Position numbers and translations under genes: made by a program. DNA of 64,000 bases from Herpetosiphon geysericola (GTDB lineage: Bacteria; Chloroflexota; Chloroflexia; Chloroflexales; Herpetosiphonaceae). The stretch spans positions 24,726-88,725 of the forward strand of contig NZ_LGKP01000040.1 in the NCBI RefSeq assembly GCF_001306135.1. The letters run 5' to 3'. The notes under the pieces are model-generated. The model did not search any database and was not told the origin of the DNA. It was given only the letters and a program-made list of their open reading frames with translations. This document shows, piece by piece, positions 9,905 through 59,372 of the stretch (positions are counted from its first letter, which is position 1; each line of letters starts with the position of its first letter).

Positions 9905-10098
9905 CCCGTAAATAAAGTCAGAAGTCAAAGGGCAAAAGTCAGAAGTCAGAAGTCAAAAAAATGCCAAGAATTATTGATCAAAGATAGATAAAACTTGGTA
10001 TTGATCAAATGCTAGCTAGAGATTGGTTTGGAACTAGACTTTTTTGATTTTGTTCTCTACTTAATATTTTGCCCTTTGACTTTTGATTTTTGACTTTC
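9905..10098. repeat. Intergenic element with inverted AAGTCAAAGGGCAAAA arms and GTCAGAAGTCA reiterations, flanking two TATTGATCAAA sites
   Basis: Left arm aagtcaaagggcaaaagtcagaagtcagaagtca. Right arm is its inverted copy, ttttgccctttgacttttgatttttgac. The centre holds two TTGATCAA palindromes. The motif recurs at about 50229 upstream of cas10. Confidence 0.55.
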
Positions 10099-14564: not shown

Positions 14565-14770
14565 AGAGCATTGATAAGGATGAAGGATGAAGGATGAGGG
14601 ATGAGAGATGAAGCCTAAAACCGATTGCCCTTCGCGTTCTTCGCGATCTTTGCGGTTCTATTCTTCGTGCGCTTCGTGTCCTTCGTGGATCAACACTAGC
14701 CCCCGACCCCTGATCCCCAGCCCCCAATCCCATTCGCTACTTTGCTTTGAAAATCCGCAGCCGCAAACTG
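14565..14770. repeat. Miniature repeat element (GGATGAA and CTTCGTG tandem units, G-rich end) inserted between the rsbW-like and STAS genes
   Basis: gataaggatgaaggatgaaggatgagggatgag...cttcgtgcgcttcgtgtccttcgtgg...cccccgacccctgatcccc. Related to the element at 25.6-25.97 kb. Confidence 0.6.
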
Positions 14771-25589: not shown

Positions 25590-25970
25590 TGTCAAGCGTA
25601 CTAAACCAAGTAATTCAAGGATGAATTATGAAGGATGAGGGTCTACAGAACAAAGAGCATAGAACATAGAACATAGAACATAGGGATCAGTCTCTAAGCT
25701 ATTGGCTTGTGGCTAGCGGAAGATTATTCGTGGAATTCGTGGAATTCGTGGAATTCGTGGCTAAAAACATGTGACTATTGGCTATTAGCTTGTGGCTCTG
25801 GGAATATAATCTGTGGTCATCTGTGTCAATCTGTGGCTAAAATGGTCTTCGCGATCTTCGTGGTTGCAAACTTCGTGCTCTTTGTGCGCTTCGTGGATCA
25901 GTTTTTAACGCATGGCTTTTGCCTTCTGACTTGGGCTTTATCCTTCATCCCTCATAATTCATCCTTGAAT
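25590..25970. repeat. Composite miniature repeat element of about 360 bp
   Basis: Terminal inverted repeats AAGGATGAATTATGA(A/G)GGATGA. Internal tandem 7-9 bp units CATAGAA x4 and GAATTCGTG x4. A CTTCGTG-rich segment is homologous to the 14.6-kb element. Confidence 0.65.
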
Positions 25971-37491: not shown

Positions 37492-38205
37492 ATGGAGCAA
37501 ATTCGCGTTCTTATTATTGATGATCACCCGCTTTTTCGCCAAGGCATCTGCTGGAGCCTCGGCCAAGAAAAAGATATCGAGGTGATTGGCCAAGCAGAAA
37601 ATGGCGCTGAGGCCATTAAACTCACCGAAACGCTCAACCCCAATGTTGTGCTGCTGGATATTAATTTGCCAGGCTTGAATGGCTTGGAAGTTGCCCGCGT
37701 GCTCAAACGCCGCGCCCCACGTATGGGCATTATTGTGCTCAGCATTCACGACGACGATGAGCAATTGTTCAACGCAATCAAGGCTGGCGCTGCTGCCTAT
37801 GCTTCCAAGGAAATCGATCCCACCCAACTCGTAGGCATGATTCGCGACGTCGCTCATGGCCGCTATGTGATCAACGAAAGCGTTATGTCAAAGCCGCATG
37901 TCGCAACCCGCGTGCTCAACCAATTTCGCGAGCTTTCGAATGTTGCCAACAGTAGCGAAGATACCTCGGTGATGTTTGCACCCTTGACCAGCCGCGAAAT
38001 TGAAATTCTCGATTGTATTGCCCGCGGCCTTTCCAACAAAGAAATCGCCAACCAACTTTCAATTAGCGGTCAAACCGTCAAAAACCATATCACCTCAATT
38101 CTCAGCAAGCTCCAAGTCAACGACCGCACGATGGCTGTTATTCATGCTATTCAACAAGGTTGGATCAAACTAGGCTATGATGAAAGTCGCAGTCGTACCG
38201 CTTGA
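37492..38205 (+). CDS. NarL/LuxR-family response regulator
   Basis: REC (VLIIDDH...DINLPGLNG) plus a LuxR HTH (LTSREIEILDCIARGLSNKEIA). Confidence 0.9.
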   Translation: MEQIRVLIIDDHPLFRQGICWSLGQEKDIEVIGQAENGAEAIKLTETLNPNVVLLDINLPGLNGLEVARVLKRRAPRMGIIVLSIHDDDEQLFNAIKAGAAAYASKEIDPTQLVGMIRDVAHGRYVINESVMSKPHVATRVLNQFRELSNVANSSEDTSVMFAPLTSREIEILDCIARGLSNKEIANQLSISGQTVKNHITSILSKLQVNDRTMAVIHAIQQGWIKLGYDESRSRTA

Positions 38206-41213: not shown

Positions 41214-41819
41214 CTATGGCTCGGTAATCGTCATAAAAAAACTAAACAGAGAGTAGGGTTCATTTGTAGAATCCATAATCCGTTGATCAGTAAACGATAA
41301 ACGGGTCTTCCCAACGTCAGTGGCTTCAAATACGAGGATTTCGAAGCCTTCGGCATCACTAAGGATGCTTGATGCTTCAAATTCTAACGAAGGGAGTTGT
41401 TGCAAAAGTCTTAATTTCGGCGATGTTACCCACTTAAAGCCAATTGAAGGGCTACTTGCCAAACGTATCTCGAGAATATCGCCTCGCTTGAGCTCCAATT
41501 TACTACCCTCATCCGCACGCGAAAGCCGAATTCTACGAGGTTCATAGGGAATCGCAGTTGATTCGATGGTGGCGGTTGATTTTATGAGATCAGTGCCACA
41601 TAGCAGGTAATTAGGATTCTCAACATAGGGGGTAGGCGACGACGGCTCAAGCGTTGGCGTTGTTACAATGCGCGAATGCTGGCGATAGTTAGCAGTTTTC
41701 AGCTCTCCTGCTGGCTGGTTAAGTTCACTGATTTGCTCCGATGTTTGGCTTAAACCGCAAGCCGAAAGGCCGATTAATATGAGTATCGATAGCCCAAACC
41801 GCCGACATAGATAGTTCAT
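41214..41819 (-). CDS. Lipoprotein with chagasin-family (I42) protease-inhibitor domain
   Basis: Lipobox LSAC. ELKRGDILEIRLASSPSIGFKW resembles the NPTTGY(S/F)W chagasin core. Confidence 0.55.
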   Translation of the reverse strand: MNYLCRRFGLSILILIGLSACGLSQTSEQISELNQPAGELKTANYRQHSRIVTTPTLEPSSPTPYVENPNYLLCGTDLIKSTATIESTAIPYEPRRIRLSRADEGSKLELKRGDILEIRLASSPSIGFKWVTSPKLRLLQQLPSLEFEASSILSDAEGFEILVFEATDVGKTRLSFTDQRIMDSTNEPYSLFSFFMTITEP

Positions 41820-41920
41820 AGATATCCTTTCTCTCTATTTAGGATAAAATTTGTATCTCTTGGTTATATTGTCTAAGCCAAAGGGCTAAGGTTTAAACTA
41901 ACCCTTTGGCTATTATCAAA

Positions 41921-42514
41921 CTACTCGCTAATTTCAAGTTCAATTAAGAACATTTCGCCAGCATCAAAACCACGTTGATACACCAGTGCAAAGCTGCCTG
42001 AACCAACCTCAACCGCCTCAAAAGAGAAAGTTTCCGTGCCGCCAGAGCCAGGCTTCGGATTCGGGTCGGAAGCGTGATATTGAGCTTGGCCTTGTTGTTG
42101 CAACAATTTGCCAGCATCAGGGCCAACGCTCCAGCTATAGCCAGTGCTTGGGTTGCTATCCAGCACAATTTGAATCCGATCGCCTTTTCTGAGCTTCAGC
42201 GTGCGATTATTATCCTGCATCGTCAGTTCGTAAACGCGGATATTAGCTTGATTTTGGCTGGTTGGGCCACACTCGCCGCGCTGAAAAGCCCATTCTTCAC
42301 ATTCGCTGCCATCAGGAAAGCCACAAAAACCAGTTTGATTGCCAGCAGCATCTTGGCGAATAGTCAGCGTGCCACCATGTTCAGTACAAAATACTGAAGC
42401 CGGATTAGCCATATCCACTACTGGAACCGGCGTTGCGCGATTTGCACCACAAGCGATGAGTACGCTTGCCATTAGCCCCATTCCCACGCTTAGCATTGAT
42501 CGACGAATCATCAT
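41921..42514 (-). CDS. Lipoprotein with DUF333-like domain plus chagasin-family (I42) inhibitor domain
   Basis: Lipobox LIAC. NPASVFCTEHGG (DUF333 / COG3042-like). LKLRKGDRIQIVLDSNPSTGYSWSV (chagasin motif). Confidence 0.65.
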   Translation of the reverse strand: MMIRRSMLSVGMGLMASVLIACGANRATPVPVVDMANPASVFCTEHGGTLTIRQDAAGNQTGFCGFPDGSECEEWAFQRGECGPTSQNQANIRVYELTMQDNNRTLKLRKGDRIQIVLDSNPSTGYSWSVGPDAGKLLQQQGQAQYHASDPNPKPGSGGTETFSFEAVEVGSGSFALVYQRGFDAGEMFLIELEISE

Positions 42515-48647: not shown

Positions 48648-50180
48648 CTACTCGATACTAAAGACCATCTCAACATCGCCAATCCGAATTCGGTCGCCTG
48701 GCCGTAGATGGTGCGGTTGGTAGGCGGTCATCGGCACGCCGTTGATGCTGGTGCCATTGATACTGCCCAAATCAATTAATAAATGATGATCGCCCTGTTG
48801 CTCAATAACAGCATGACGACGGGAAGCTACGCCACGATCATGCTCAGCCAAATCGATCTCAGGGTGATGATTTTGGGCAGGATCACGCCGCCCAATGCGG
48901 CAAGGAAAATGAGTTAATGCTAATTCCCAAACCGCGCGCGGCGAGGTAATGACCAGTTTTGGCACAGCTCGCTTGATTGCAGCGCCACACCCAGCGCAAA
49001 ATCGTGCATTAGGCTTATTCATGCGCCCACATTGATCACAAATTGGGCCATTGGCCTGTGGTGGCGGCGACCAAGCTGGAGTCTGAACTGGTGGCGCCCA
49101 CGATGGCACTGATTGCTGTGGCACCGGCTGCGCCATTGGTTGCTGATAATTTGGCTGTTGCGGCGCACCCCACGCTGGTGCTGGATTGGGATTCGGATTG
49201 CCCCACGCTGGTGCTGGATTGGGATTCTGGTTGCCCCACGCTGGTGCTGGATTGGAATTCGGATTGCTCCACGAAGGATCAGGATTGTTAAACACTGGCG
49301 CTGGCGTTGGCATCATCGTCGGATCATCAAGCTTATCGGGCACGATAACCCCACGATCAACCGCCAACAAGGCTTGCTCAAATGAAGCCATAGTTTGAAA
49401 GCGCTTATCGCGATCCATCGCCATGGCCTTGATAATCACCTGTTCCATCTCCGGTGTAACCGATTGATTATGTCGAATCAATGAGCCATCTTTGGGGGTT
49501 TGCAAGGGCACAGGCGGCAAGTTGGTGAGCATATGCAGCAAGGTCGCCCCCAAAGCATAAATATCGGCACGGGCATCAGTTTGGCCCTTGCCATATTGCT
49601 CTGGTGGTGCATAGCCCGCCGAACCCATTGCCACCGTATCTTTGCTTTTATTGGTTTTGTAGGTACGCGCCACGCCAAAATCGATCAGCTTAATAATGCC
49701 CTCAGGCGTAAGCATCACATTTGGCGGCTTCATATCGCGAAAAATAATTGGCGGATTTTGGGTGTGCAAATAATTCAACACCCGCGCAATTTGAATTCCC
49801 CAATTGACCACATCGCGTTGAAAAAATGGCGCATTCGTTTCACGCTGCTTATCTTCGAGCGTTTTGCCTTGCACAAACTCCATCACCAGCGTCGGGCGCC
49901 CAGCCTGATCGAAAGAATCGATCACTTTGGGTAAGTTTGGATGATCGAGCGTTTGCAACAATTGCGATTCTTGGTCGAAAAGCTTGCGATTTTCGGCAAT
50001 TTCTTCAGGCGCAGCCTCAACTGGTGGGCGCATCTCTTTTAATGCCCAGGTCGAGCCATCGCTCATGCGTTCACAGCGATAGACCGCGCCCATGCCGCCG
50101 CGCCCAATGAGGCCGAGAATCCGATATTGATCACGTTGTCCTTGAAGTATCGTGCCATCAGGCAGCAAATCAGCAAACAC
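48648..50180 (-). CDS. Ser/Thr protein kinase with Pro/Gln-rich repeat linker, zinc ribbon and C-terminal FHA domain
   Basis: Kinase core (ALKEM, FRDMKPPN, DFG, APE). PAPAWGNPNPN x3 repeat. CDQCG...CAGCG ribbon. FHA (CRIGR...RRHAVI...LIDLGSINGT). Confidence 0.85.
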   Translation of the reverse strand: MFADLLPDGTILQGQRDQYRILGLIGRGGMGAVYRCERMSDGSTWALKEMRPPVEAAPEEIAENRKLFDQESQLLQTLDHPNLPKVIDSFDQAGRPTLVMEFVQGKTLEDKQRETNAPFFQRDVVNWGIQIARVLNYLHTQNPPIIFRDMKPPNVMLTPEGIIKLIDFGVARTYKTNKSKDTVAMGSAGYAPPEQYGKGQTDARADIYALGATLLHMLTNLPPVPLQTPKDGSLIRHNQSVTPEMEQVIIKAMAMDRDKRFQTMASFEQALLAVDRGVIVPDKLDDPTMMPTPAPVFNNPDPSWSNPNSNPAPAWGNQNPNPAPAWGNPNPNPAPAWGAPQQPNYQQPMAQPVPQQSVPSWAPPVQTPAWSPPPQANGPICDQCGRMNKPNARFCAGCGAAIKRAVPKLVITSPRAVWELALTHFPCRIGRRDPAQNHHPEIDLAEHDRGVASRRHAVIEQQGDHHLLIDLGSINGTSINGVPMTAYQPHHLRPGDRIRIGDVEMVFSIE

Positions 50181-50444
50181 AGTTTCTCCCGCCGCTACAT
50201 GATTGCGTAGCTTGTATTATCACCGATTGATACGTCAAAAGTCAAAGGGTGGTGGCAACCATTAATCAACAATTAAGCAAGCATTGCCCCAATCACATGC
50301 AAAAAATCACCAGAGATTGCATCTATACCTAGTACAGGCTGTGCTTGACAATCCTTGGTAGGATAGGAGATAGCTCCTAGCATTCCACCAAGCCACTCCA
50401 ACTATACCACTCTCTGTTGCCAGTTAGTTCTTTGGGGAGTTGTA

Positions 50445-52268
50445 ATGTCAAATTTATTCCTGATCGCGATCGGCCCAGTTCAAGATTTTATCGCCAGTGC
50501 TCGCCGTACCCGCGACCTCTGGTTTGGTTCGTGGCTACTCAGCGAATTAGCCAAAGCGGTAGCAAAAAGCATTTATGAAAAAGAGGGAAAAGAAGCGCTG
50601 ATCTTCCCCTATCCAACCGATCTACCTCAAGATTTAGAGCCAAACAGTACATTCAACGTCCCTAACAAAATTCTCGCCAAAATTAAAGACGATCCCACAG
50701 GCCAAGCAGTTTTAGCTCGTGAGGCCTTAATCGCTCGATTGAATGAGATTCGCGAGGCAGCCTTTGCCAAAGTTAATGGCAAAATTGAGCGAGAGCGAGC
50801 GATTGAACAAATCGATGCATTAGTTGAATTCAATTGGGTTGCATTACCCTTAGCAAGCGATGATACTTATCGTGCAACCCGCCAGCAACTTGAGAACATG
50901 ATGGCGGCGCGGAAAAATACCCGTAATTTTGGTGCGGTAACGTGGGGTACCAACGATCCAAAATCCTCAATCGATGGTGAACGCGAATCGGTGATTGCTG
51001 AAAAATACTATCCCCCTCCTCAGTTGTCTAATACCTCACCAGAATACGCCAAAATCGTTGTCGATCTCTATCGCAATTATGGAATCAACGTTGGCGAACG
51101 TTTATCAGGCGTTGATATGCTCAAGCGTCATGGTCAAAAAGGCAAAGATTCAAGATTTCCAAGCACCTCACATATGGCAGCTGTACCAGTTTTTAATTAT
51201 TTGCTTGGAATGAATACCAAAGAGCAAAGTAAAAATAAGGTAGCCGAATCCTGGGATACATACATTGCTAATTTAAATACTATTCTTGCTATGCGAGAAT
51301 ATATTCGCAATGAAGTTACCCCCAAATCACAGGATATTTTTGAAGATTATGATGGTTCGCTTCTCTTTGCCGAACGTTTCAACGATGCCTTAGTAGGGGA
51401 AGATATTCAAAAGGCGCAACAATTTCTACATACATTTCTACAACCATTTCTTGGTACAAAGGTTCCCATTCCCTACTACGCCATTCTCCATGCTGATGGC
51501 GATGCGATGGGGAGTGTGATTAATAAACAAGAAGAGTTAATTGATCACCAAGATATTTCCAAACAATTAACAGTCTTTGCAGGGGAAGTAAAATCAATCG
51601 TTGAAGCAAATCAAGGAGCCTTAGTCTATTCCGGTGGCGATGATGTTTTAGCATTTTTACCGTTGCATACTGTATTGGAATGTGCCGATGCGTTGGCTAA
51701 AAGGTTTCAAACGCTGTTAAGTAACTTTAAAGATAAAACAGATCGTTCGCCAACGCTCTCGGTCGGCATTGCAATTGTGCACCACTTGGAGCCATTATCC
51801 GATGCCTTAGAGTTGGCACGCGCTGCCGAGAAAAAAGCCAAAGGCGTAGCAGGCAAAAATGCACTGGCCATCAATCTCAGCAAACGTGGCGGCACAGATC
51901 GAATTATCGTTGGCTCATGGATTGAAAGCACATATTCATTTTACAATCGACTTAAAAAATTAATTGAATGGCATCAAAACGATAAAATTCCCCTTAGCTT
52001 TGCTTTTGAACTGCATGATTTATCCATTCGCCTAAAAGACTTGCCTGCCAATATTTTTCACGCCGAGGCCAAACGAATTATCGAGCGCAAACATACCAGC
52101 AACGGGATAAAAGTTGACGGTGATATTGCGCAAAAACTCCTCTCCATGATTCATGATTTGGTTCCAGAAACGCTGACCGAAGCACACACACTGATCCAGC
52201 AATTTGCCGATGAAGTGATTATTGCGGGGTTTATTGCTCAAGCCCAAAACCTTAGTAACGGCAAATAA
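50445..52268 (+). CDS. cas10: Type III CRISPR-Cas Cas10/Cmr2, minimal HD-less form
   Basis: N-terminal IGPVQDFIASARRTRDLWFGSWLLS (Cmr2 signature) and palm GGDD motif (VYSGGDDVLAFLP). No HD motif. Good GGGGAG RBS. Confidence 0.85.
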   Translation: MSNLFLIAIGPVQDFIASARRTRDLWFGSWLLSELAKAVAKSIYEKEGKEALIFPYPTDLPQDLEPNSTFNVPNKILAKIKDDPTGQAVLAREALIARLNEIREAAFAKVNGKIERERAIEQIDALVEFNWVALPLASDDTYRATRQQLENMMAARKNTRNFGAVTWGTNDPKSSIDGERESVIAEKYYPPPQLSNTSPEYAKIVVDLYRNYGINVGERLSGVDMLKRHGQKGKDSRFPSTSHMAAVPVFNYLLGMNTKEQSKNKVAESWDTYIANLNTILAMREYIRNEVTPKSQDIFEDYDGSLLFAERFNDALVGEDIQKAQQFLHTFLQPFLGTKVPIPYYAILHADGDAMGSVINKQEELIDHQDISKQLTVFAGEVKSIVEANQGALVYSGGDDVLAFLPLHTVLECADALAKRFQTLLSNFKDKTDRSPTLSVGIAIVHHLEPLSDALELARAAEKKAKGVAGKNALAINLSKRGGTDRIIVGSWIESTYSFYNRLKKLIEWHQNDKIPLSFAFELHDLSIRLKDLPANIFHAEAKRIIERKHTSNGIKVDGDIAQKLLSMIHDLVPETLTEAHTLIQQFADEVIIAGFIAQAQNLSNGK

Positions 52269-52292
52269 CACAACATTTTGAGGAGGATTACG

Positions 52293-53741
52293 ATGGCAAA
52301 ACAAAGCCGCCGCGAACGGCATAACCAAAAACAACAAGCAAAAAAGCAAATGCATGCGCAAAACCAAATAGCCGACCCAATAATCGAGCATACTAGCCAC
52401 GTTCAGGTCGAAACATATGAGAATCCACCAAACACCAGCTGCGAAACACCAACCCAACAAACATGGCTGATCGAACCGCGTGATCCGTTGATTGTGCGCG
52501 ATGGCCGACCATTTAACAACACACCTGGAGCACGCGCCTATACCCAGTCGTTCCCGCCGCCATCAGTTTTGGCAGGGGTTATTCGCTCACAAACTGCCTA
52601 TGCTTCAAAACTCCAATTTACTCGTAACTCCGATGACAACCGACAGCAGGGAAATAAATTACAGCCAATTCAAATCTATGGGCCTTTATTATTCAAATTG
52701 CCCAATCCAAACAAAGAAAAAGATGAGCCTGAATTCTTATGCCATGCACCTGCCGATGCACTGTTATTTGAGCCTGAGGCCAAAACCAAGGCCCAAGAAT
52801 CTGACAATCAACAATCACCACCAACTAGACCTTGGCTCTGCCGCTTGGTGCCAATTCAGGTTCCTGAAAGGTTCGTCTGCGATTTTAATGAACTTGGCTT
52901 GGTTGGTTTAGTCAAAGCTGATCCACGTAAGCCAGCCAAAGATCAACCGCAATTTTGGTATTGGGAACATTTTCTGCACTGGTTGCAAGATCCTGAAGGA
53001 TTGATCAATAAGACCAATCCTCAAGCCTCAAACCCCAAGACAATCGCCGTGGGAGATTTGGGAATTAAAGGCTTGCCAATTGATCAACGAACTCATGTAC
53101 AGATTGATAGTGAGAGCCAAAGTGCTGAAGATGGCCGCTTATTTCAAACCCGTGGCCTAAGTTTTACCCAAACCAACGAGCAACAATTGGCCGAAGCGCG
53201 GCGTTTGGCATTATATGTGCACGCCGATTACCGCGATACAACTGGTTTAACTATCCCACAACCAAGCATCGCACCATTGGGCGGCGAACGCCGTTTGGCT
53301 CATTGGGCAAAAACCGATCAGAGCTTACCAGCATGCGATCAAGTTATCGTTGATGCAATCGTAAAAGCCAACGCATGCCGCGTGATTCTGCTCACCCCAG
53401 CAATGTTTAGTGAGGGCTATCGCCCAACGTGGCTATTCCAAGATCCCCAAGGTGTTCAGCCAACGCTTGCAGCAATTGCGATCAAGCGTGCTCAAGTTAT
53501 TTCAGGCTGGGATTTGGCAATTCATAAGCCGAAACCAACTCGCCGCCTAGCTCCCGCTGGCACGGTCTTGTTCCTGAAATTCGCTGAAAAGGAAAATTCG
53601 GCGGCAATTGAAGCATGGGTTCGTAACTATTGGATGCAATGCATCAGCGATGAAGAGCAAGATCGCCGCGATGGCTTTGGCTTGGCCGTATTTGGAACTT
53701 GGGATGGCGAGTTTGCTGAAATTAAGGGGGAAACTAAATGA
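52293..53741 (+). CDS. cmr3: Cmr3 (Cas5-group RAMP) with Lys/Gln-rich N-terminal extension
   Basis: DPLIVRDGRPF...SFPPPSVLAGVIRS is the canonical Cmr3 N-terminus. C-terminal G-rich loop DGFGLAVFG. ATG start with a GAGGAGG RBS. Confidence 0.85.
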   Translation: MAKQSRRERHNQKQQAKKQMHAQNQIADPIIEHTSHVQVETYENPPNTSCETPTQQTWLIEPRDPLIVRDGRPFNNTPGARAYTQSFPPPSVLAGVIRSQTAYASKLQFTRNSDDNRQQGNKLQPIQIYGPLLFKLPNPNKEKDEPEFLCHAPADALLFEPEAKTKAQESDNQQSPPTRPWLCRLVPIQVPERFVCDFNELGLVGLVKADPRKPAKDQPQFWYWEHFLHWLQDPEGLINKTNPQASNPKTIAVGDLGIKGLPIDQRTHVQIDSESQSAEDGRLFQTRGLSFTQTNEQQLAEARRLALYVHADYRDTTGLTIPQPSIAPLGGERRLAHWAKTDQSLPACDQVIVDAIVKANACRVILLTPAMFSEGYRPTWLFQDPQGVQPTLAAIAIKRAQVISGWDLAIHKPKPTRRLAPAGTVLFLKFAEKENSAAIEAWVRNYWMQCISDEEQDRRDGFGLAVFGTWDGEFAEIKGETK

Positions 53742-54142
53742 ATCGTAAGCCAAGAATTCCTGCACCAGAGCCTATAAAGTATCAAGCGCCAAATGAATTT
53801 ACTGTTGGAGAACACACCTATATCACCAAAACCCGCAGCTACAAACTGATCACCCCATTGTTTGGTGGTGGCGTTGAAGCTGGGCTGAACGACCCACTCA
53901 CGCCAATTCGCGCTAGTGGCATTCGCGGCCAATTGCGCTTTTGGTGGCGAGCTATTCGCGGCGGCGGCTATAGCTCAGTTGATGATTTACGGGCAAAAGA
54001 GGCTGAAATTTGGGGTAGTGCTGGAACTTCGTCTACTTCTGAAAAGAAAAAGGTGAATCAAGATTCTAGTAATCTAGTAGATGATCAAAATCAAGAAAAT
54101 AATAAATTAAAAAAATATCATTCCTATTCAAATCTCTGTTGA
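53738..54142 (+). CDS. cmr1: Cmr1 N-terminal RAMP domain; first fragment of a split or frameshifted cmr1
   Basis: ITPLFGGG...SGIRGQLRFWWRA RAMP motif. ATGA overlap with the cmr3 stop. Ends just after an A7 homopolymer. Confidence 0.7.
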   Translation: MNRKPRIPAPEPIKYQAPNEFTVGEHTYITKTRSYKLITPLFGGGVEAGLNDPLTPIRASGIRGQLRFWWRAIRGGGYSSVDDLRAKEAEIWGSAGTSSTSEKKKVNQDSSNLVDDQNQENNKLKKYHSYSNLC

Positions 54143-54179
54143 GATAATTTCTGATGGAGAAGAAAAATATCCATATGTT

Positions 54180-55217
54180 ATGGAAAAGAATGCTAGAGGA
54201 AATTATAATCCAGAGCCTATATCTAGTACTGCGCCTGCATATGTATCTTTTCCATTAAAGCCAGAAAGGAACGCTATAAGAAAATATGGATCTCAAACTC
54301 CTATCAATCCTATTCGTAATAAGATTATTTTTAGATTAAAAATTACCTACTATCAGCATCATAAACTGGAAATTCAAGCTGCACTATGGGCATGGGAGAC
54401 GTTTGGTGGAGTTGGTGGTCGTACCCGCCGTGGATTTGGTTCGATCACTCAGTGTGATAGTGATAATAAACCACAAAATGCAGAATCAGTTACGCAATGG
54501 CTAAAACAAAACATTAACAATTATACAGAAGATATTTCAAAAAGAGGTTTTAATTGGATTAATAATATTCCTAATATTGTAGAAAGTATTAACGAGAGTA
54601 AATTTTTCTGCTCAAAACAAAGCTTAAATGCTTTAAGTATTTGGAGTGATATGATAAATATGTTACAAATATTTCGTCATCAACGCATTCAGTATGGAAA
54701 AAAATTTGGAAGAAATTATTGGCCTGAGCCAGATTTTATTCGGAGAATTACCAAGAAAAGATCATATAGTCATAATAAGGATATAGTTACGATTAATAAA
54801 TTTCCGCGTGCAGCTTTTGGATTACCAATAATATTCCAGTTTATCAATCGTAAAGATGAAAGTAATCCTAATGCTCCTAGAGATCCTTATGATACAACGC
54901 TAGTGCCCAAAGGTTTTGAGCGCTTTTCTAGCCCTTTGATTATTAAGATTATTCAATGTACCGATGAAAGTTATGTTGGAATTGCACTTATTTTGAGCAA
55001 AACCCAAGTCCCTAATCAATTACAACTGAAAAAGGGTGGAACTCCATTGCTCAATCCTAACGATCAAACCGAAGATTTTCAACATCTCTTGACACCTAAT
55101 GAAGCACAGAAAATCAAGCAAATTGAAGCTAATAAAGCGTCAGGCTCATTACTGAATCAAGGAACCGATATTCTTAAAGCATTTTTAGCCTATCTTAAGG
55201 AAAAAATGCCGCAATAA
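54180..55217 (+). CDS. cmr1: Cmr1 C-terminal RAMP domain; second fragment
   Basis: G-rich loop WETFGGVGGRTRRGFGSI. The open frame extends upstream to about 54111, through the A7 run. Very AT-rich codon usage. Confidence 0.7.
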   Translation: MEKNARGNYNPEPISSTAPAYVSFPLKPERNAIRKYGSQTPINPIRNKIIFRLKITYYQHHKLEIQAALWAWETFGGVGGRTRRGFGSITQCDSDNKPQNAESVTQWLKQNINNYTEDISKRGFNWINNIPNIVESINESKFFCSKQSLNALSIWSDMINMLQIFRHQRIQYGKKFGRNYWPEPDFIRRITKKRSYSHNKDIVTINKFPRAAFGLPIIFQFINRKDESNPNAPRDPYDTTLVPKGFERFSSPLIIKIIQCTDESYVGIALILSKTQVPNQLQLKKGGTPLLNPNDQTEDFQHLLTPNEAQKIKQIEANKASGSLLNQGTDILKAFLAYLKEKMPQ

Positions 55218-55286
55218 TCTACTGTTACTAGGTAAAAAATACTGTTCTCAAAGCATTTTTAGCCTATCTTAAGAAGGAGCTAGATA

Positions 55287-56168
55287 ATGACCACCAAACT
55301 CGTTTTTGTCCATGCCCTTTCACCACTCCATGCTGGCACTGGCCAAGGTTCCGGCGTGATCGATTTGCCGATTGCCCGCGAAAAAGCCACCAATTTGCCC
55401 TATTTGCCTGGCTCATCGCTCAAAGGCCCGTTGCGTGATAGTTACACTGGCGCTCGTAAAGATGAAATTTTTGGAACAGCATCAGATAACGCCACTGGTA
55501 GTGCAGGCTTTGTACAATTTTCTGATCTGCGCTTGTTATGCATGCCGGTGCGCAGCTTGTATGGAACCTTCGCATGGGTCACTTCGCCGTATATTCTCAA
55601 TCGCCTTGCCCGTGAAATCAAAGACCTTTTTACTGAAAATATCCCACCAAGCTGGATCAAAACCCCTGATGTGGAGCAATGTTTTGTTGCTGCAAACTCA
55701 GCACTTAAATCAAACTTACCAAAATCAGCAAAGCACAAGGATATTTATTTAGAAGATTTGGATTTTGAATATCAAGCGGATCAAGCTGAGCTAGTAACCC
55801 AATGGGTTGAGTGGCTGAAAAAACGTATTTTTGGTGATTCACCAGAGTGGCAAACGATGTTTGTTGAGCGTTTTTGCATCGTCAATGATGATGTGTTTAG
55901 TTTTCTTTTGAATACTGCCACCGAAATAACTGCTCGGATTCGGCTTAACGATGAAACCAAAACCGTTGCTGATGGTCAACTTTGGTATGAAGAAGCCTTG
56001 CCAGCCGAATCGATTTTGACTGGCTTGATGTTAATTGCTCCGCCAGCCTCAAAAACAGAGGTAGGAGACAGCATTAAGACTGAGCTACCACGACTTTGGC
56101 AAAAACCAATTCAACTTGGAGGCAAGGCCACCGTCGGGCGCGGAATTTGTCGCGTGATTGTGAAATAG
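55287..56168 (+). CDS. cmr4: Cmr4 (Cas7 backbone subunit, target-RNA slicer)
   Basis: VFVHALSPLHAGTGQGSGVIDLPIAREKATNLPYLPGSSLKGPLR is a textbook Cmr4 N-terminus including the catalytic Asp region. C-terminal G-rich loop GGKATVGRG. Confidence 0.9.
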   Translation: MTTKLVFVHALSPLHAGTGQGSGVIDLPIAREKATNLPYLPGSSLKGPLRDSYTGARKDEIFGTASDNATGSAGFVQFSDLRLLCMPVRSLYGTFAWVTSPYILNRLAREIKDLFTENIPPSWIKTPDVEQCFVAANSALKSNLPKSAKHKDIYLEDLDFEYQADQAELVTQWVEWLKKRIFGDSPEWQTMFVERFCIVNDDVFSFLLNTATEITARIRLNDETKTVADGQLWYEEALPAESILTGLMLIAPPASKTEVGDSIKTELPRLWQKPIQLGGKATVGRGICRVIVK

Positions 56169-56178
56169 GAGTAGCACT

Positions 56179-56634
56179 ATGAGTAATTCAGTTTTTCAAA
56201 CTCGTGATCAGAAATTTGCTGCTTCAGCGTATGCTCATATTGAAACAGTCTTAAAACAATATCCAAAACCAGTTGATAAACCCAACACTGAGAAATCCAA
56301 AGAAGAGAAATCTATTGAGGCAAAATATCAAACGAGTCGCAATGTATATGGCTCGATGGCGCACAAATTACCAATCTTGATTAGAAATGCAGGTTTAGTT
56401 CAAGCTTTAGCATTTGCCCAATCACGCGATAAGTCAGAGATTAACTTATTTCTAGAACATCTTGCCATAACTATTAACTTTACCTGTAAAGCTCAAGATT
56501 TCGCTGCTAAAGTAGCTGAATTAGAATTAGCTGAGTATATGTACCGAACTCAGCAAGCTTTAGATGCATTACTTTGGTACAAGCGTTTTGTTCAAAGCAT
56601 TCTTGATATTGATCCAAGCAATGCAATTCAATAA
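56179..56634 (+). CDS. cmr5: Cmr5 small subunit
   Basis: 151 aa, helical, LPILIRNAGLVQALAF motif. Position between cmr4 and cmr6. Confidence 0.75.
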   Translation: MSNSVFQTRDQKFAASAYAHIETVLKQYPKPVDKPNTEKSKEEKSIEAKYQTSRNVYGSMAHKLPILIRNAGLVQALAFAQSRDKSEINLFLEHLAITINFTCKAQDFAAKVAELELAEYMYRTQQALDALLWYKRFVQSILDIDPSNAIQ

Positions 56635-56648
56635 ACATTGAGGTATTT

Positions 56649-57572
56649 ATGAATAGTCGGCGTGATAGTTTAAATAAGGTCACAGTAGACAATGTAGCGC
56701 ATGCAGGCTTATGGCTTGACCGCTATTTGCCCGAACAACCTGAAAATAAAGCGAATCAGCAACGTCCGAATAATGCACTAGTCGGAAAACATCCAGTTAA
56801 ACATGATGAATGCACATCAGATAATCCATTAACTAAACATTTTTGTAGAGGTTCGCAGATTGCCAGAAAAGAACCAGTATTAAAACTCTATCAACAATTT
56901 TTTGCTCGCTGGTTGAACGCGTTAAAGGAAATTCCCGATATTTGCTTGCTGAAGGCGGAAGTCAAGGGTCGCATGGTCGTGGGGCTGGGAGCCGAAAGCG
57001 TGCTCGAAAACTCGATTGCTTTGCAGCGCACCTATGGCATGCCGTACATTCCTGGCAGTGCCTTGAAGGGATTGGCATCGAGCTTCGCCCACCAACGCCT
57101 CGGCCAAGGAGCTGCCAATGCAGATACACCCAACGATTGGGCAAAGGGTGGCAAATTTCATCGCGAATTATTTGGCACAACCGAGCTAAGTGGCTGCGTT
57201 AGCTTTTACGATGCCTTGTATATGCCTGATACTGCTGAAACTGGAGGCCCATTACATCCCGATGTGATTACCGTGCATCATCCTGAGTATTATCAAGGCA
57301 AGAAAAAGCCTAATCCCAATGGTGATCAAGACCAAAGTATGCCACCAGCCGATTGGGATAGCCCGACGATTATTCAGTTTCTCAGCGCGACTGGTCACTA
57401 TTTAGTAGCACTCAGCGGAGTAGAAGGTTGGCGTGATACCGCCCGCACATTGCTAGCCAATGGCCTTACGCATATAGGCATTGGCGCCAAAACTTCTAGT
57501 GGGTATGGACGGATGGAGCTTAAATCCCTTAATGAAGCCGAGATTGTAAAGTTATTAAATCAAGGAGTTTAA
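56649..57572 (+). CDS. cmr6: Cmr6 (Cas7-group RAMP)
   Basis: GRMVVGLGAESVLEN...PYIPGSALKGLASS and C-terminal G-rich loop IGIGAKTSSGYGRM. Confidence 0.85.
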   Translation: MNSRRDSLNKVTVDNVAHAGLWLDRYLPEQPENKANQQRPNNALVGKHPVKHDECTSDNPLTKHFCRGSQIARKEPVLKLYQQFFARWLNALKEIPDICLLKAEVKGRMVVGLGAESVLENSIALQRTYGMPYIPGSALKGLASSFAHQRLGQGAANADTPNDWAKGGKFHRELFGTTELSGCVSFYDALYMPDTAETGGPLHPDVITVHHPEYYQGKKKPNPNGDQDQSMPPADWDSPTIIQFLSATGHYLVALSGVEGWRDTARTLLANGLTHIGIGAKTSSGYGRMELKSLNEAEIVKLLNQGV

Positions 57573-57574
57573 TT

Positions 57575-58915
57575 ATGACTAAGAAAGCCATCGCATTTTT
57601 AGGCAAAGGCCGCTATAGTTTTACCCAATATTGTTATACAGATTCTAAAACTGGAAATGTTATCAAAGCCGATTGGAATAAATATTTCAGTGCAACATTA
57701 ACATTTTTCTATCCTGATATTGAAGAACTATATATCGTTATGACAGAAGAGGCGAGAAAAGAGCATTGGGATAACTCGGAAAATCCTAAAAATCTCAAAG
57801 AAACCTTGAAATTGCAAAAAGTTCGGGTGATACCTGTTCCTATTGATTCTGGAAGAAATGATACGGAACTTTGGGAAATTTTCAAGTCTATCGTTAAGGT
57901 TATTGATTATAATGATGAGATCATTTTTGATATTACAAATGCTTTTCGCTCACAACCAGTGATAACAATGATTATTGCATCATTTATTAAAGTTATTAAA
58001 AACGCCAAAATTACCCATTTGGTGTATGGTGCTTGGGATGCAAGAGTAGAAGAGAAAGATTCAGAAAATAACATTAAATTCTCTGAATCTCCTGTTTTCG
58101 ACCTGTCTGCCTTCTTAACCCTACTCGACTGGACTACTGCCACCAACACCTTTATTCAAACAGGTCGTGCCGAACAATTGACCAAACTTGCTGAAACGTT
58201 TAAAAACGATGCAGTTGAAGGTTTTGCCAAACAAGTACACAAACTTTCGCAAGAGTTATTAACTACCCGCCCAGTTGGCGTGATGCAAGCTGCCTCAGGC
58301 TTTGAGCAAGCCTTAGCCAAGGTTGAAGCCGCCGTGCAACAAAACCCAGCCATGCAACCGTATCAACAGTTGTTGGAACGGATCAAAGATGAATATAGCC
58401 CGTTTGCGATTGCTACTGAGCCGATGGCAGATTTGAGTGAGGCTTATGCGACAGCTCGCCAGCAACAACGGGCTTTTTTAGCAGTCCAACTCGAGATGAT
58501 TAAGTGGTATCTCGAAAAGGGATTACCAATTCAAGCTATGACTTTAGCCCGCGAGTGGCTGATATTGTTGAGTGTCTATTACCAAAATGCTGATGGTGAG
58601 AAAGTTGATATGTTTATTTATAATGAAAAGAAGGTTATTGAGAGTTTTATCAATGGCTATTCACCTCAGCAAAACAATAACCGATCACAACGAAATGACA
58701 ACAAGAAACCTAAAATGGTTATGTCGGCTAAACTACAAAAGTCAATCGAAAAAATACAAGCTGTTTGGGATAGCGAAGATGCTTCAATTCGCACTATTCG
58801 TAATGATATTGCTCATTGTGGGCTGGATATAGGTAATAGCCGAACCGCCACAGAAATTGCTGAACAGGCTGAAACTATCTGCCAACGGCTGTATGCTTTA
58901 TTACCGACCGAATAA
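57575..58915 (+). CDS. csx1: Csx1-family CARF-HEPN ribonuclease
   Basis: N-terminal Rossmann-like CARF (KAIAFLGKGRYSF...). C-terminal HEPN R-x4-H motif (IRNDIAHCG). 446 aa. Confidence 0.8.
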   Translation: MTKKAIAFLGKGRYSFTQYCYTDSKTGNVIKADWNKYFSATLTFFYPDIEELYIVMTEEARKEHWDNSENPKNLKETLKLQKVRVIPVPIDSGRNDTELWEIFKSIVKVIDYNDEIIFDITNAFRSQPVITMIIASFIKVIKNAKITHLVYGAWDARVEEKDSENNIKFSESPVFDLSAFLTLLDWTTATNTFIQTGRAEQLTKLAETFKNDAVEGFAKQVHKLSQELLTTRPVGVMQAASGFEQALAKVEAAVQQNPAMQPYQQLLERIKDEYSPFAIATEPMADLSEAYATARQQQRAFLAVQLEMIKWYLEKGLPIQAMTLAREWLILLSVYYQNADGEKVDMFIYNEKKVIESFINGYSPQQNNNRSQRNDNKKPKMVMSAKLQKSIEKIQAVWDSEDASIRTIRNDIAHCGLDIGNSRTATEIAEQAETICQRLYALLPTE

Positions 58916-58929
58916 TTGAAGGAAAGCCT

Positions 58930-59319
58930 ATGCTTCTGATTAACTTTGCCCATCCATTGACTGATGCGCAGTTTAGCCAAGTCGTGGCCATCGTTGAAGA
59001 AACTCCACAACTATGTTTTGTCGATACCCAAGTGAGCCGGATGCGGCCTTTGGGCGAGGTTGCTTATGATTTGGTTGAAAGCGTTAGCTTGAAAACCGCC
59101 GATTGGCAAACTATACCGATTATTATCAATCCCCCAGGCTTGGCTCCATTGGCCTTGGCAGTTATCGCCGAGTTGCACGGGCGTTCAGGCTATTTTCTGC
59201 CAATTATCAATATGCGGCCTGTGCCCAAGACTACCCCAACCATCTTCGAGGTAGCAGAAATTTGCAATTTGGATGCAATTCGCCAAGTTGCACGTACACG
59301 GCGCATTCCCAAGCTGTAG
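58930..59319 (+). CDS. Uncharacterised small alpha/beta protein in the type III locus (candidate accessory or ring-nuclease-like)
   Basis: 129-aa ORF with an RBS (GAAGGA). Alternating beta-alpha pattern (LLINFAHP...IPIIINPPGLAPLALAVIAEL). Followed by a strong terminator. Confidence 0.5.
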   Translation: MLLINFAHPLTDAQFSQVVAIVEETPQLCFVDTQVSRMRPLGEVAYDLVESVSLKTADWQTIPIIINPPGLAPLALAVIAELHGRSGYFLPIINMRPVPKTTPTIFEVAEICNLDAIRQVARTRRIPKL

Positions 59320-59320
59320 T

Positions 59321-59372
59321 CCAAGCACAGGGTATAGATCAAACTAATCTATGCCCTGTGCTTGGACTTAGG
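59321..59372. terminator. Bidirectional terminator hairpin between convergent genes
   Basis: 22-bp stem AGTCCAAGCACAGGGTATAGAT / ATCTATGCCCTGTGCTTGGACT with a 7-nt loop, including one G-U pair. Confidence 0.6.

Follow-up and report, generated by a model that had tools for sequence, protein, structure and literature searches.

The 64,000-nt stretch of Herpetosiphon geysericola DNA analysed here (hereafter the window; contig NZ_LGKP01000040.1, positions 24,726 to 88,725) carries a type III-B (Cmr) CRISPR-Cas module at positions 50445-59319 of the forward strand. This locus is in all likelihood a chromosomal interference module of Herpetosiphon that has no array and shares the architecture of the Thermus thermophilus Cmr complex (TtCmr); its outputs would run through cyclic oligoadenylate (cOA) and the ribonuclease (RNase) Csx1, with damping by Csx15. 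Families were assigned by profile searches against Pfam, NCBIfam and PADLOC, judged by the curated cut-offs. Nine consecutive co-directional open reading frames (ORFs) occupy exactly this interval, and each scored above the cut-off for its expected family. The Cas10/Cmr2, Cmr3, Cmr4, Cmr5 and Cmr6 proteins that define type III-B were all recognised, but an intact Cmr1 was not. An earlier, sequence-only reading of the same DNA had named the Cas10, Cmr1-6 and Csx1 families, and the profile searches bore these identities out. Its co-directional cas block also stood, whereas its count of eight genes became nine ORFs, since cmr1 is split by a frameshift.

Organisation of the cas block

The block begins with cas10/cmr2 (50445-52268), followed by cmr3 of the Cas5 family (52278-53741), which matched PF09700 (E 1.3e-74), TIGR01888 (105 bits; cut-off 100) and the PADLOC Cmr3 model. 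The start codon of cmr3 is uncertain: it was called as TTG at 52278, yet the family match starts at residue 63. Next comes the interrupted cmr1 (53738-55217), with the Cmr1 and RAMP profiles divided between two ORFs. The gene for the Cas7 backbone and target-RNA cleaving subunit, cmr4 (55287-56168), scored 249 bits in TIGR02580 (cut-off 87) and matched the PADLOC Cmr4 model; its product keeps the catalytic-loop aspartate (GVID26LPIAREKAT, aligned with GAIDLPIAREKAT of TtCmr4). The Cas11 small subunit is encoded by cmr5 (56179-56634; PF09701, E 1.7e-19; TIGR01881, 36.8 bits with a cut-off of 27.9; PADLOC Cmr5), and the Cas7-like cap subunit by cmr6 (56649-57572; TIGR01898, 123 bits with a cut-off of 51; PADLOC Cmr6). 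The genes csx1 (57575-58915) and csx15 (58930-59319) close the block.

The cas block is a tight operon. Overlap was observed only at the cmr3/cmr1 junction (ATGA); the remaining junctions are gaps of 2, 9, 10, 14 and 14 nt, and cmr1 and cmr4 are 69 nt apart. The claim that the genes are translationally coupled through ATGA or TAA-ATG overlaps therefore holds for cmr3/cmr1 and is overstated for every other junction. Among the comparison loci, L002 (16368-17048) and L003 (8912-9760) encode the same Cas10 protein and differ in the called length of cmr6 (226 vs 282 aa), which reflects either an assembly error or a second damaged subunit gene in the module family.

Cas10

The 607-aa Cas10 matched TIGR02577 (226 bits; cut-off 79), PF22335 (E 7.5e-39) and PF12469 (E 7.6e-20), its recognised domains being Cmr2_N and Cas10-Cmr2_palm2. 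Both palm motifs, DGD at residues 351-353 and GGDD at 397-400, are invariant in the alignment with TtCmr2. The Cmr2_N domain begins at residue 5, no HD nuclease domain was found, and the N-terminus lines up with the start of other Cmr2 proteins of ~600 aa. A GGGGAG ribosome-binding site precedes the ATG. We rejected an upstream-extended cas10 carrying an HD domain on account of an in-frame stop 27 codons upstream of the ATG and insufficient room, the divergent kinase gene being 264 nt away. The description of Cas10 as a 607-aa protein that lacks HD and retains GGDD is thus upheld by the alignment start, the upstream stop and the 264-nt spacer together, and extending the start, the step named beforehand as able to overturn it, recovered no HD domain.

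The best 120 of 2851 homologues are all 573-690 aa long and have the same domain set, so that a short, HD-less Cas10 is the norm for a large clade. The minimal Cas10 had been put forward as unusual; it has the typical length of these 120 proteins and is built like that of T. thermophilus TtCmr. The closest relatives are 63-77% identical, and those that are named belong to Herpetosiphon species or to an unclassified Chloroflexi metagenome-assembled genome (MAG). The next tier, at ~46% identity, comprises assorted Chloroflexota, Acidobacteriota and others.

Csx1, Csx15 and the accessory slot

The 446-aa product of csx1 is a CARF-HEPN effector RNase by its matches to the PADLOC models CARF2--CARF_HEPN (1e-88, residues 3-443) and Csx1/Csm6 (1.8e-87) and to TIGR02221 (91 bits; cut-off 76). 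The HEPN motif is R409-N-D-I-A-H414, and RNDIAH is invariant in three Herpetosiphon Csx1 proteins. A sequence search of the PDB with Csx1 found no relative.

The last ORF of the block, 129 aa long and previously left as unknown, is Csx15, a small CARF-fold binder of cyclic tetra-adenylate (cA4) or ring nuclease. It matched NF040560 over residues 2-125 (140.7 bits, cut-off 35; E 2.7e-41), and its structural relatives are PDB 9teu (csx15; 1.2e-13) and the Csx15 domain of CbCash, 9ylu (~1e-13). In the alignment to 9teu, H8, H83 and the C-terminal Arg cluster R118/R122/R124 are retained. As reported for the family, Csx15 adopts the CARF fold and binds cA4 in filaments, and the type III-linked member slowly hydrolyses cA4 (PMC13148439). 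The protein resembles PfCsx15 and CliCsx15 (PDB 9teu) in its full-length family match and in keeping the His and Arg residues of the ligand site, and, like CliCsx15, it is encoded within a type III locus. It differs from the solved Csx15 in having Ala (NFAHP) instead of Ser before the conserved His, a position that presumably corresponds to the conserved S9 of PfCsx15. Judging by these residues, the protein may either hydrolyse cA4 or only sequester it. The operon offers a natural example of a cA4 quencher hard-wired behind an effector.

The accessory slot holds Csx1 alone in the window and in Herpetosiphon sp. NSE202. In H. aurantiacus, H. gulosus and a MAG, it holds only a 284-aa CARF-PD(D/E)xK nuclease, encoded between cmr6 and csx15, and in H. 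llansteffanensis both proteins are present. The nuclease matched PADLOC PDLC01887 (1e-106 to 1e-111), and its genes lie at L015 11404-12258 (reverse strand), L004 10977-11834, L002 17115-17969 and L005 17181-18035. NCBIfam returned nothing for the H. aurantiacus 284-aa protein and only sub-threshold CARF matches for the H. llansteffanensis orthologue.

Predicted interference route and crRNA supply

In the route that we propose, Cas10, Cmr3, Cmr1, Cmr4, Cmr5 and Cmr6 would assemble on CRISPR RNA (crRNA) produced elsewhere in the genome by the Cas6 of another CRISPR-Cas locus. Pairing with a complementary transcript would lead the Cmr4 backbone to cut the RNA at 6-nt intervals and would also turn on the GGDD palm of Cas10, which would make cOA. 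The cOA is most likely cA4, because Csx15 is cA4-specific. No DNase output is expected, because Cas10 has no HD domain. The cA4 would activate Csx1, with collateral, non-specific RNA degradation as the result, and Csx15 would bind or slowly degrade cA4, so that the signal is damped or reset. An RNA-targeting effector with cOA/Csx1 output and no cleavage of single-stranded DNA had been predicted from the sequence; the absence of HD, the GGDD motif and the Csx1 motifs agree with it, while the activity of the complex in this strain and the cOA species are inferred.

No CRISPR array was detected in the 64 kb by Tandem Repeats Finder or by a direct-repeat scan at CRISPR-like spacing, and an Rfam scan of the whole window gave no match. 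The remaining ORFs of 80 aa or more were also concatenated and run against PADLOC, and no cas1, cas2, cas6 or other cas gene outside the block was among the matches listed. For two of the eight concatenated queries, the listing was filled by kinase models; the genes there are housekeeping ones according to the Pfam content of their orthologues and to our reading of them. The CARF3 match to a LuxR-type response regulator (37492-38205) was rejected as a generic domain cross-match, and so were the SduA and PD-T4-6 matches to receiver and kinase domains; none of these is a defence gene. Repeat scans, Rfam and PADLOC thus all agree with the earlier statement that the window contains no CRISPR repeats, cas6 or cas1/cas2.

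A congener illustrates a plausible source of crRNA. H. aurantiacus has an orthologous array-less module on its chromosome and a type I-B locus on plasmid pHAU01 (CP000876), with genes for Cst1, DevR/Cas7, Cas5, Cas3, Cas6, Cas1, Cas2 and Cas4. The Cas6 gene is Haur_5080, annotated as 'conserved hypothetical' (PADLOC 1.8e-80), and Haur_5075 encodes a WYL regulator by PADLOC; NCBIfam gave no match for either. The plasmid carries an array of ~102 repeats (ATTTCAATTACTCGATCCGATTAGAGGATACTGAAAC) that end in ACTGAAAC; the repeat terminus, ...ACUGAAAC, would be an example of an end of the 8-nt-handle type. Next to a second array, of 22 repeats (GTAAGAATCATCGCCCCGACGAAGAGGGGTTTAAAAC), there are no cas genes. 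These cas and array regions lie at L009 2031-9378 and 34010-35581 and at L008 43117-50000. The genome paper of H. aurantiacus lists 11 CRISPR arrays (PMC3368417), and 33 cas genes were reported for H. llansteffanensis (PMC6210107). Supply of crRNA in trans, as the sequence-only reading had required, is plausible because H. aurantiacus, with its array-less orthologous module, also has Cas6 and arrays on a plasmid; for the genome of the window itself, such supply is predicted by analogy with this congener.

Genomic site and base composition

The module lies between a divergent gene for a Ser/Thr kinase with an FHA domain and a convergent methyltransferase gene, as had been noted before. The same site is filled in Herpetosiphon sp. 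NSE202, a Chloroflexi MAG, H. llansteffanensis, H. gulosus and the chromosome of H. aurantiacus DSM 785, and all genes of the orthologous modules are intact in those five genomes. A scan for the methyltransferase gene in species-representative genomes showed the site to be empty in H. giganteus DSM 589 and in one MAG. There, the methyltransferase stop lies 110 nt from the kinase start (L012 10757-10866; L014 10757-10866), with no remnant of the module. The unit of presence or absence is the whole 9.2-kb module, window 50181-59367, and at its boundaries we saw neither a target-site duplication nor an att-like repeat.

In a six-locus alignment, ~105 nt beside the kinase gene are common to filled and empty sites, whereas a leader of ~150 nt beside cas10 occurs only in carriers. 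This leader (50290-50444, forward strand) belongs to the inserted module and not to the kinase promoter, and is the putative promoter region of the operon. It exists in two allelic types, the distribution of which does not follow that of the flanks. Consensus scans for promoters and terminators performed no better than on shuffled sequence. At the other end, a perfect 22-bp hairpin with a 7-nt loop (59318-59368; -45.7 kcal/mol, z-score -10.6) takes up the whole spacer between the convergent csx15 and methyltransferase genes, reaching the stop codon of each. The empty sites lack this hairpin, which is probably a bidirectional terminator.

The G+C content (GC) of the module is 0.425, compared with 0.522 for the rest of the window, and falls to 34-36% in the 3′ part of cmr1 and in cmr5. 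The low GC relative to the flanks was described correctly at the outset; the recent horizontal acquisition read from it does not hold, given that five other Herpetosiphon-group genomes have the module at the same site, which is polymorphic, and with the same deficit (GC 0.41-0.43 in all six carriers). The deficit, shared by all carriers at this site, is inherent to the cassette and does not mark its recent acquisition by this strain. Besides base composition, a recent horizontal transfer of the module into this strain has in its favour an indel polymorphism, with two congeners lacking the module, and individual genes that are closest to alleles of the other Herpetosiphon clade. We nevertheless regard it as improbable. 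Six genomes, drawn from the two clades of the genus, agree in site, orientation and boundaries; the closest Cas10 from any other genus reaches just 46% identity, which places the gene pool within Herpetosiphon; and homologous recombination moves alleles and segments, whereas the island does not travel as a unit.

Allelic mosaic and selection

The flanking genes group the window with NSE202, H. llansteffanensis and H. giganteus (96-98% aa identity; synonymous divergence, dS, 0.26-0.45). Their identity to H. aurantiacus, H. gulosus and the MAGs is mostly 86-90%, and up to 94% for the hydrolase, with dS of 0.64-1.4. Between flanks that are 86-98% identical, the cas genes range from 39 to 94% aa identity, and the nearest relative shifts gene by gene. 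For cas10 it is NSE202 (77%) and for cmr3 a MAG (78%). The C-terminal half of cmr1 is 87% identical to that of H. aurantiacus, with dS of 0.16 where the flanks have 0.67-1.16, and only 39% identical to that of NSE202. Similarly, cmr4 is 91-94% identical to the alleles of the other clade (dS 0.27) and 59-60% identical to those of its own. Across the set, cmr5 is 44-72% and csx1 50-54% identical, whereas csx15 is 85-97% identical and evolves as the flanks do.

The mosaic also runs within genes. In Cmr1, the nearest partner changes along the length of the protein. Comparison of csx1 (57575-58915) with L001 16897-18204 and L004 9636-10949 showed residues 173-345 of Csx1 (~170 aa) to be almost identical to NSE202, and the CARF and HEPN ends to be far more divergent. 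This pattern suggests either recombination at the level of domains or a common scaffold on which ligand or target specificities differ.

Across the genus, the orthologous modules stay intact, with a ratio of nonsynonymous to synonymous divergence (dN/dS) of ~0.2-0.35 over dS of 0.4-1, and purifying selection therefore acts on the module within the genus. The flanking genes (dN/dS ~0.05) are constrained five to ten times more strongly. The diversity points to an allele pool within the genus that is moved by homologous recombination, because the nearest Cas10 outside the genus is so distant. We tentatively suggest, as a reading that is possible rather than probable, that the Cmr slot is a genus-wide hypervariable immune locus, at which alleles, gene parts and the output effector are shuffled at one fixed site. 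The parts shuffled would then be the C-terminal half of Cmr1, Cmr4, Cmr5, the CARF and HEPN ends of Csx1, and the operon leader. Such a locus, if real, would be expected under diversifying or balancing selection from phage anti-CRISPRs or ring nucleases, and not under the drift of an idle orphan. The mosaic may stem either from an arms race or from relaxed constraint. Eight congeneric genomes in which one immune locus is present, absent or variable in a collinear background amount to a natural experiment on type III diversification, and the allelic mosaic is the only aspect of the module that may repay further work.

Interruption of cmr1

The sequence-only reading took cmr1 as a single intact gene and overlooked a +1 frameshift at an A7 homopolymer (54109-54115, forward strand). 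The N-terminal fragment (53738-54142; 134 aa) scored 52.7 bits in TIGR01894 (cut-off 28.65), and the C-terminal fragment (54180-55217; 345 aa), in a frame open from 54111 with its first ATG at 54180, matched the PADLOC Cmr1 model (1.5e-25). The Pfam RAMPs model is cut between the two, at positions 3-101 and 104-188. H. gulosus (L005) and H. aurantiacus (L015), both with intact cmr1, have A6 in near-identical surroundings, read through as NNKLKNIIPIQISVE. With one A removed, cmr1 encodes 492 aa, and the product can be aligned from end to end with the intact orthologues (476-509 aa). We place roughly equal weight on a homopolymer sequencing error and on a genuine inactivating insertion. If A7 is a true mutation, the complex would have no intact Cmr1 and would probably be impaired.

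The operon may be wholly intact, with eight genes, and the frameshift a sequencing or assembly artefact; we would give this a little under an even chance. Exactly one base is surplus, in a run of seven A within a low-complexity segment of 33% GC, and the repaired frame equals the intact orthologues residue for residue across the junction. Against an artefact, no further frameshift was noticed in the operon or in the compared flanking genes.

We think it rather unlikely that the module is instead a decaying orphan remnant, unused for defence in this strain, with a genuine cmr1 frameshift as the first step to loss. The run that splits the RAMP domain does differ from that of both orthologues, and loss or absence of the module is evidently tolerated, since H. 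giganteus and one MAG lack it precisely and entirely. The raised dN/dS relative to the flanks and the absence of an array from the 64 kb point in the same direction. On the other hand, all other genes are intact, catalytic motifs included, and a single-base homopolymer difference is the commonest type of assembly error. Moreover, orthologues that stay intact over dS of 0.5-1 with dN/dS <0.35 indicate purifying selection on the module in the genus, and the recent allele exchange into the C-terminal part of cmr1 (dS 0.16 to H. aurantiacus) argues for function until recently.

A slippage-prone switch, in which transcriptional or translational frameshifting or phase variation at the A-run would tune the dosage of Cmr1 or turn the module on and off, seems very improbable. 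The homopolymer does lie within a lineage-specific low-complexity insert common to the window, H. gulosus and H. aurantiacus, and the C-terminal frame opens directly after the run. However, six or seven A fall short of the run lengths at which slippage is usually efficient, the two orthologues simply read in frame, no stimulatory structure was seen (none having been looked for), and the variant was observed once only.

Our preferred reading remains that of a TtCmr-like interference module signalling through cOA and Csx1, and the following points weigh against it. The frameshift falls within the first RAMP domain of Cmr1, so the complex may be non-functional here; the cOA species is taken solely from the family specificity of Csx15; and a dN/dS of five to ten times the flank value could also be read as relaxed constraint. 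The frameshift needs checking before anyone annotates or clones the operon.

A 29-nt direct repeat (55171-55273, forward strand) was observed close by, with one copy at the 3′ end of cmr1 (55171-55199) and the other between cmr1 and cmr4 (55245-55273), shortly before the ribosome-binding site of cmr4. The copies are 97% identical and 45 nt apart, and the pair is conserved in H. gulosus (L005) and a MAG (L002). We rejected a mini-CRISPR, as the sequence occurs just twice, once within coding DNA, relatives keep the same arrangement, and the repeat extends into the ribosome-binding region of cmr4. It may have been left by recombination or may serve a regulatory role.

Other features of the window

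The kinase gene next to the module contains a 33-nt tandem repeat (49168-49273; 3.2 copies, 91% matches), translated as PAPAWGN-type repeats in the linker that joins the kinase part to the zinc-ribbon/FHA parts. The kinase varies in length between species (491-512 aa). Short tandem arrays with units of 7 or 9 nt (AAGTCAG, TTTTGAC, AAGGATG, AGAACAT and ATTCGTGGA) lie in or near intergenic DNA at 9914-9958, 10067-10097, 14576-14613, 25647-25683 and 25726-25760. A pair of neighbouring ORFs at 41214-42514 on the reverse strand falls in a low-GC kilobase (0.443); both are ~200 aa long and have lipoprotein-like signal sequences. Relatives have a single DUF333/Inhibitor_I42 gene at this position, and the pair may have arisen by local duplication.

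Comparison with known systems

The closest model of the module is TtCmr of T. thermophilus HB8, encoded on pTT27 in the identical order cas10-cmr3-cmr1-cmr4-cmr5-cmr6, with no cas6, cas1 or cas2 in the operon. The position of cmr1 between cmr3 and cmr4, which had been taken as unusual, is therefore that of the Thermus operon. Cas10 of the window is 39% identical end to end to the 584-aa TtCmr2, with the cyclase motifs common to both, and Cmr4 is 47% identical to TtCmr4, with a conserved catalytic loop. The Cas10 of TtCmr is reported to have neither an HD domain nor DNase activity, while the complex cleaves target RNA and makes cOA (PMC8376896). The Thermus CARF RNase TTHB144 is activated by cA4 (PMC13148439). 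TtCmr differs in being plasmid-borne and in having no accessory genes directly downstream, whereas the Herpetosiphon operon includes csx1 and csx15. Further differences are the frameshifted cmr1 of the window and lineage-specific low-complexity inserts in the Herpetosiphon proteins, for example in Cmr1.

Array-less type III modules that borrow crRNAs and Cas6 from type I systems in the same cell include the Cmr system of Pyrococcus furiosus and the III-B systems of Marinomonas and Pseudomonas, which use I-F arrays. The module resembles them in being interference-only, with no array, cas6 or adaptation genes nearby. The congener H. aurantiacus would fit this pattern, carrying a type I-B locus with Cas6 and large arrays beside its orthologous module. 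In the type III-Bv system of Synechocystis (CRISPR3), a Cmr system lacking Cas6, crRNA is matured by RNase E from its own adjacent array. That system is similar in being a Cmr module without its own cas6; its array is adjacent, however, whereas the window has none and gives no hint of processing by RNase E. We rejected the idea of a cyanobacterial III-Bv system relying on RNase E, since the HIP1 motif is not enriched in the window and the homologues place the module in Herpetosiphon.

Array-less III-B modules with an HD-less Cas10, Csx1 and a ring nuclease are already well described, and the present system adds little to them; TtCmr itself is already in diagnostic use. The module is an ordinary representative of this well-known kind: it belongs to type III-B, resembles TtCmr, lacks both an HD domain and an array, and includes Csx1 and Csx15.

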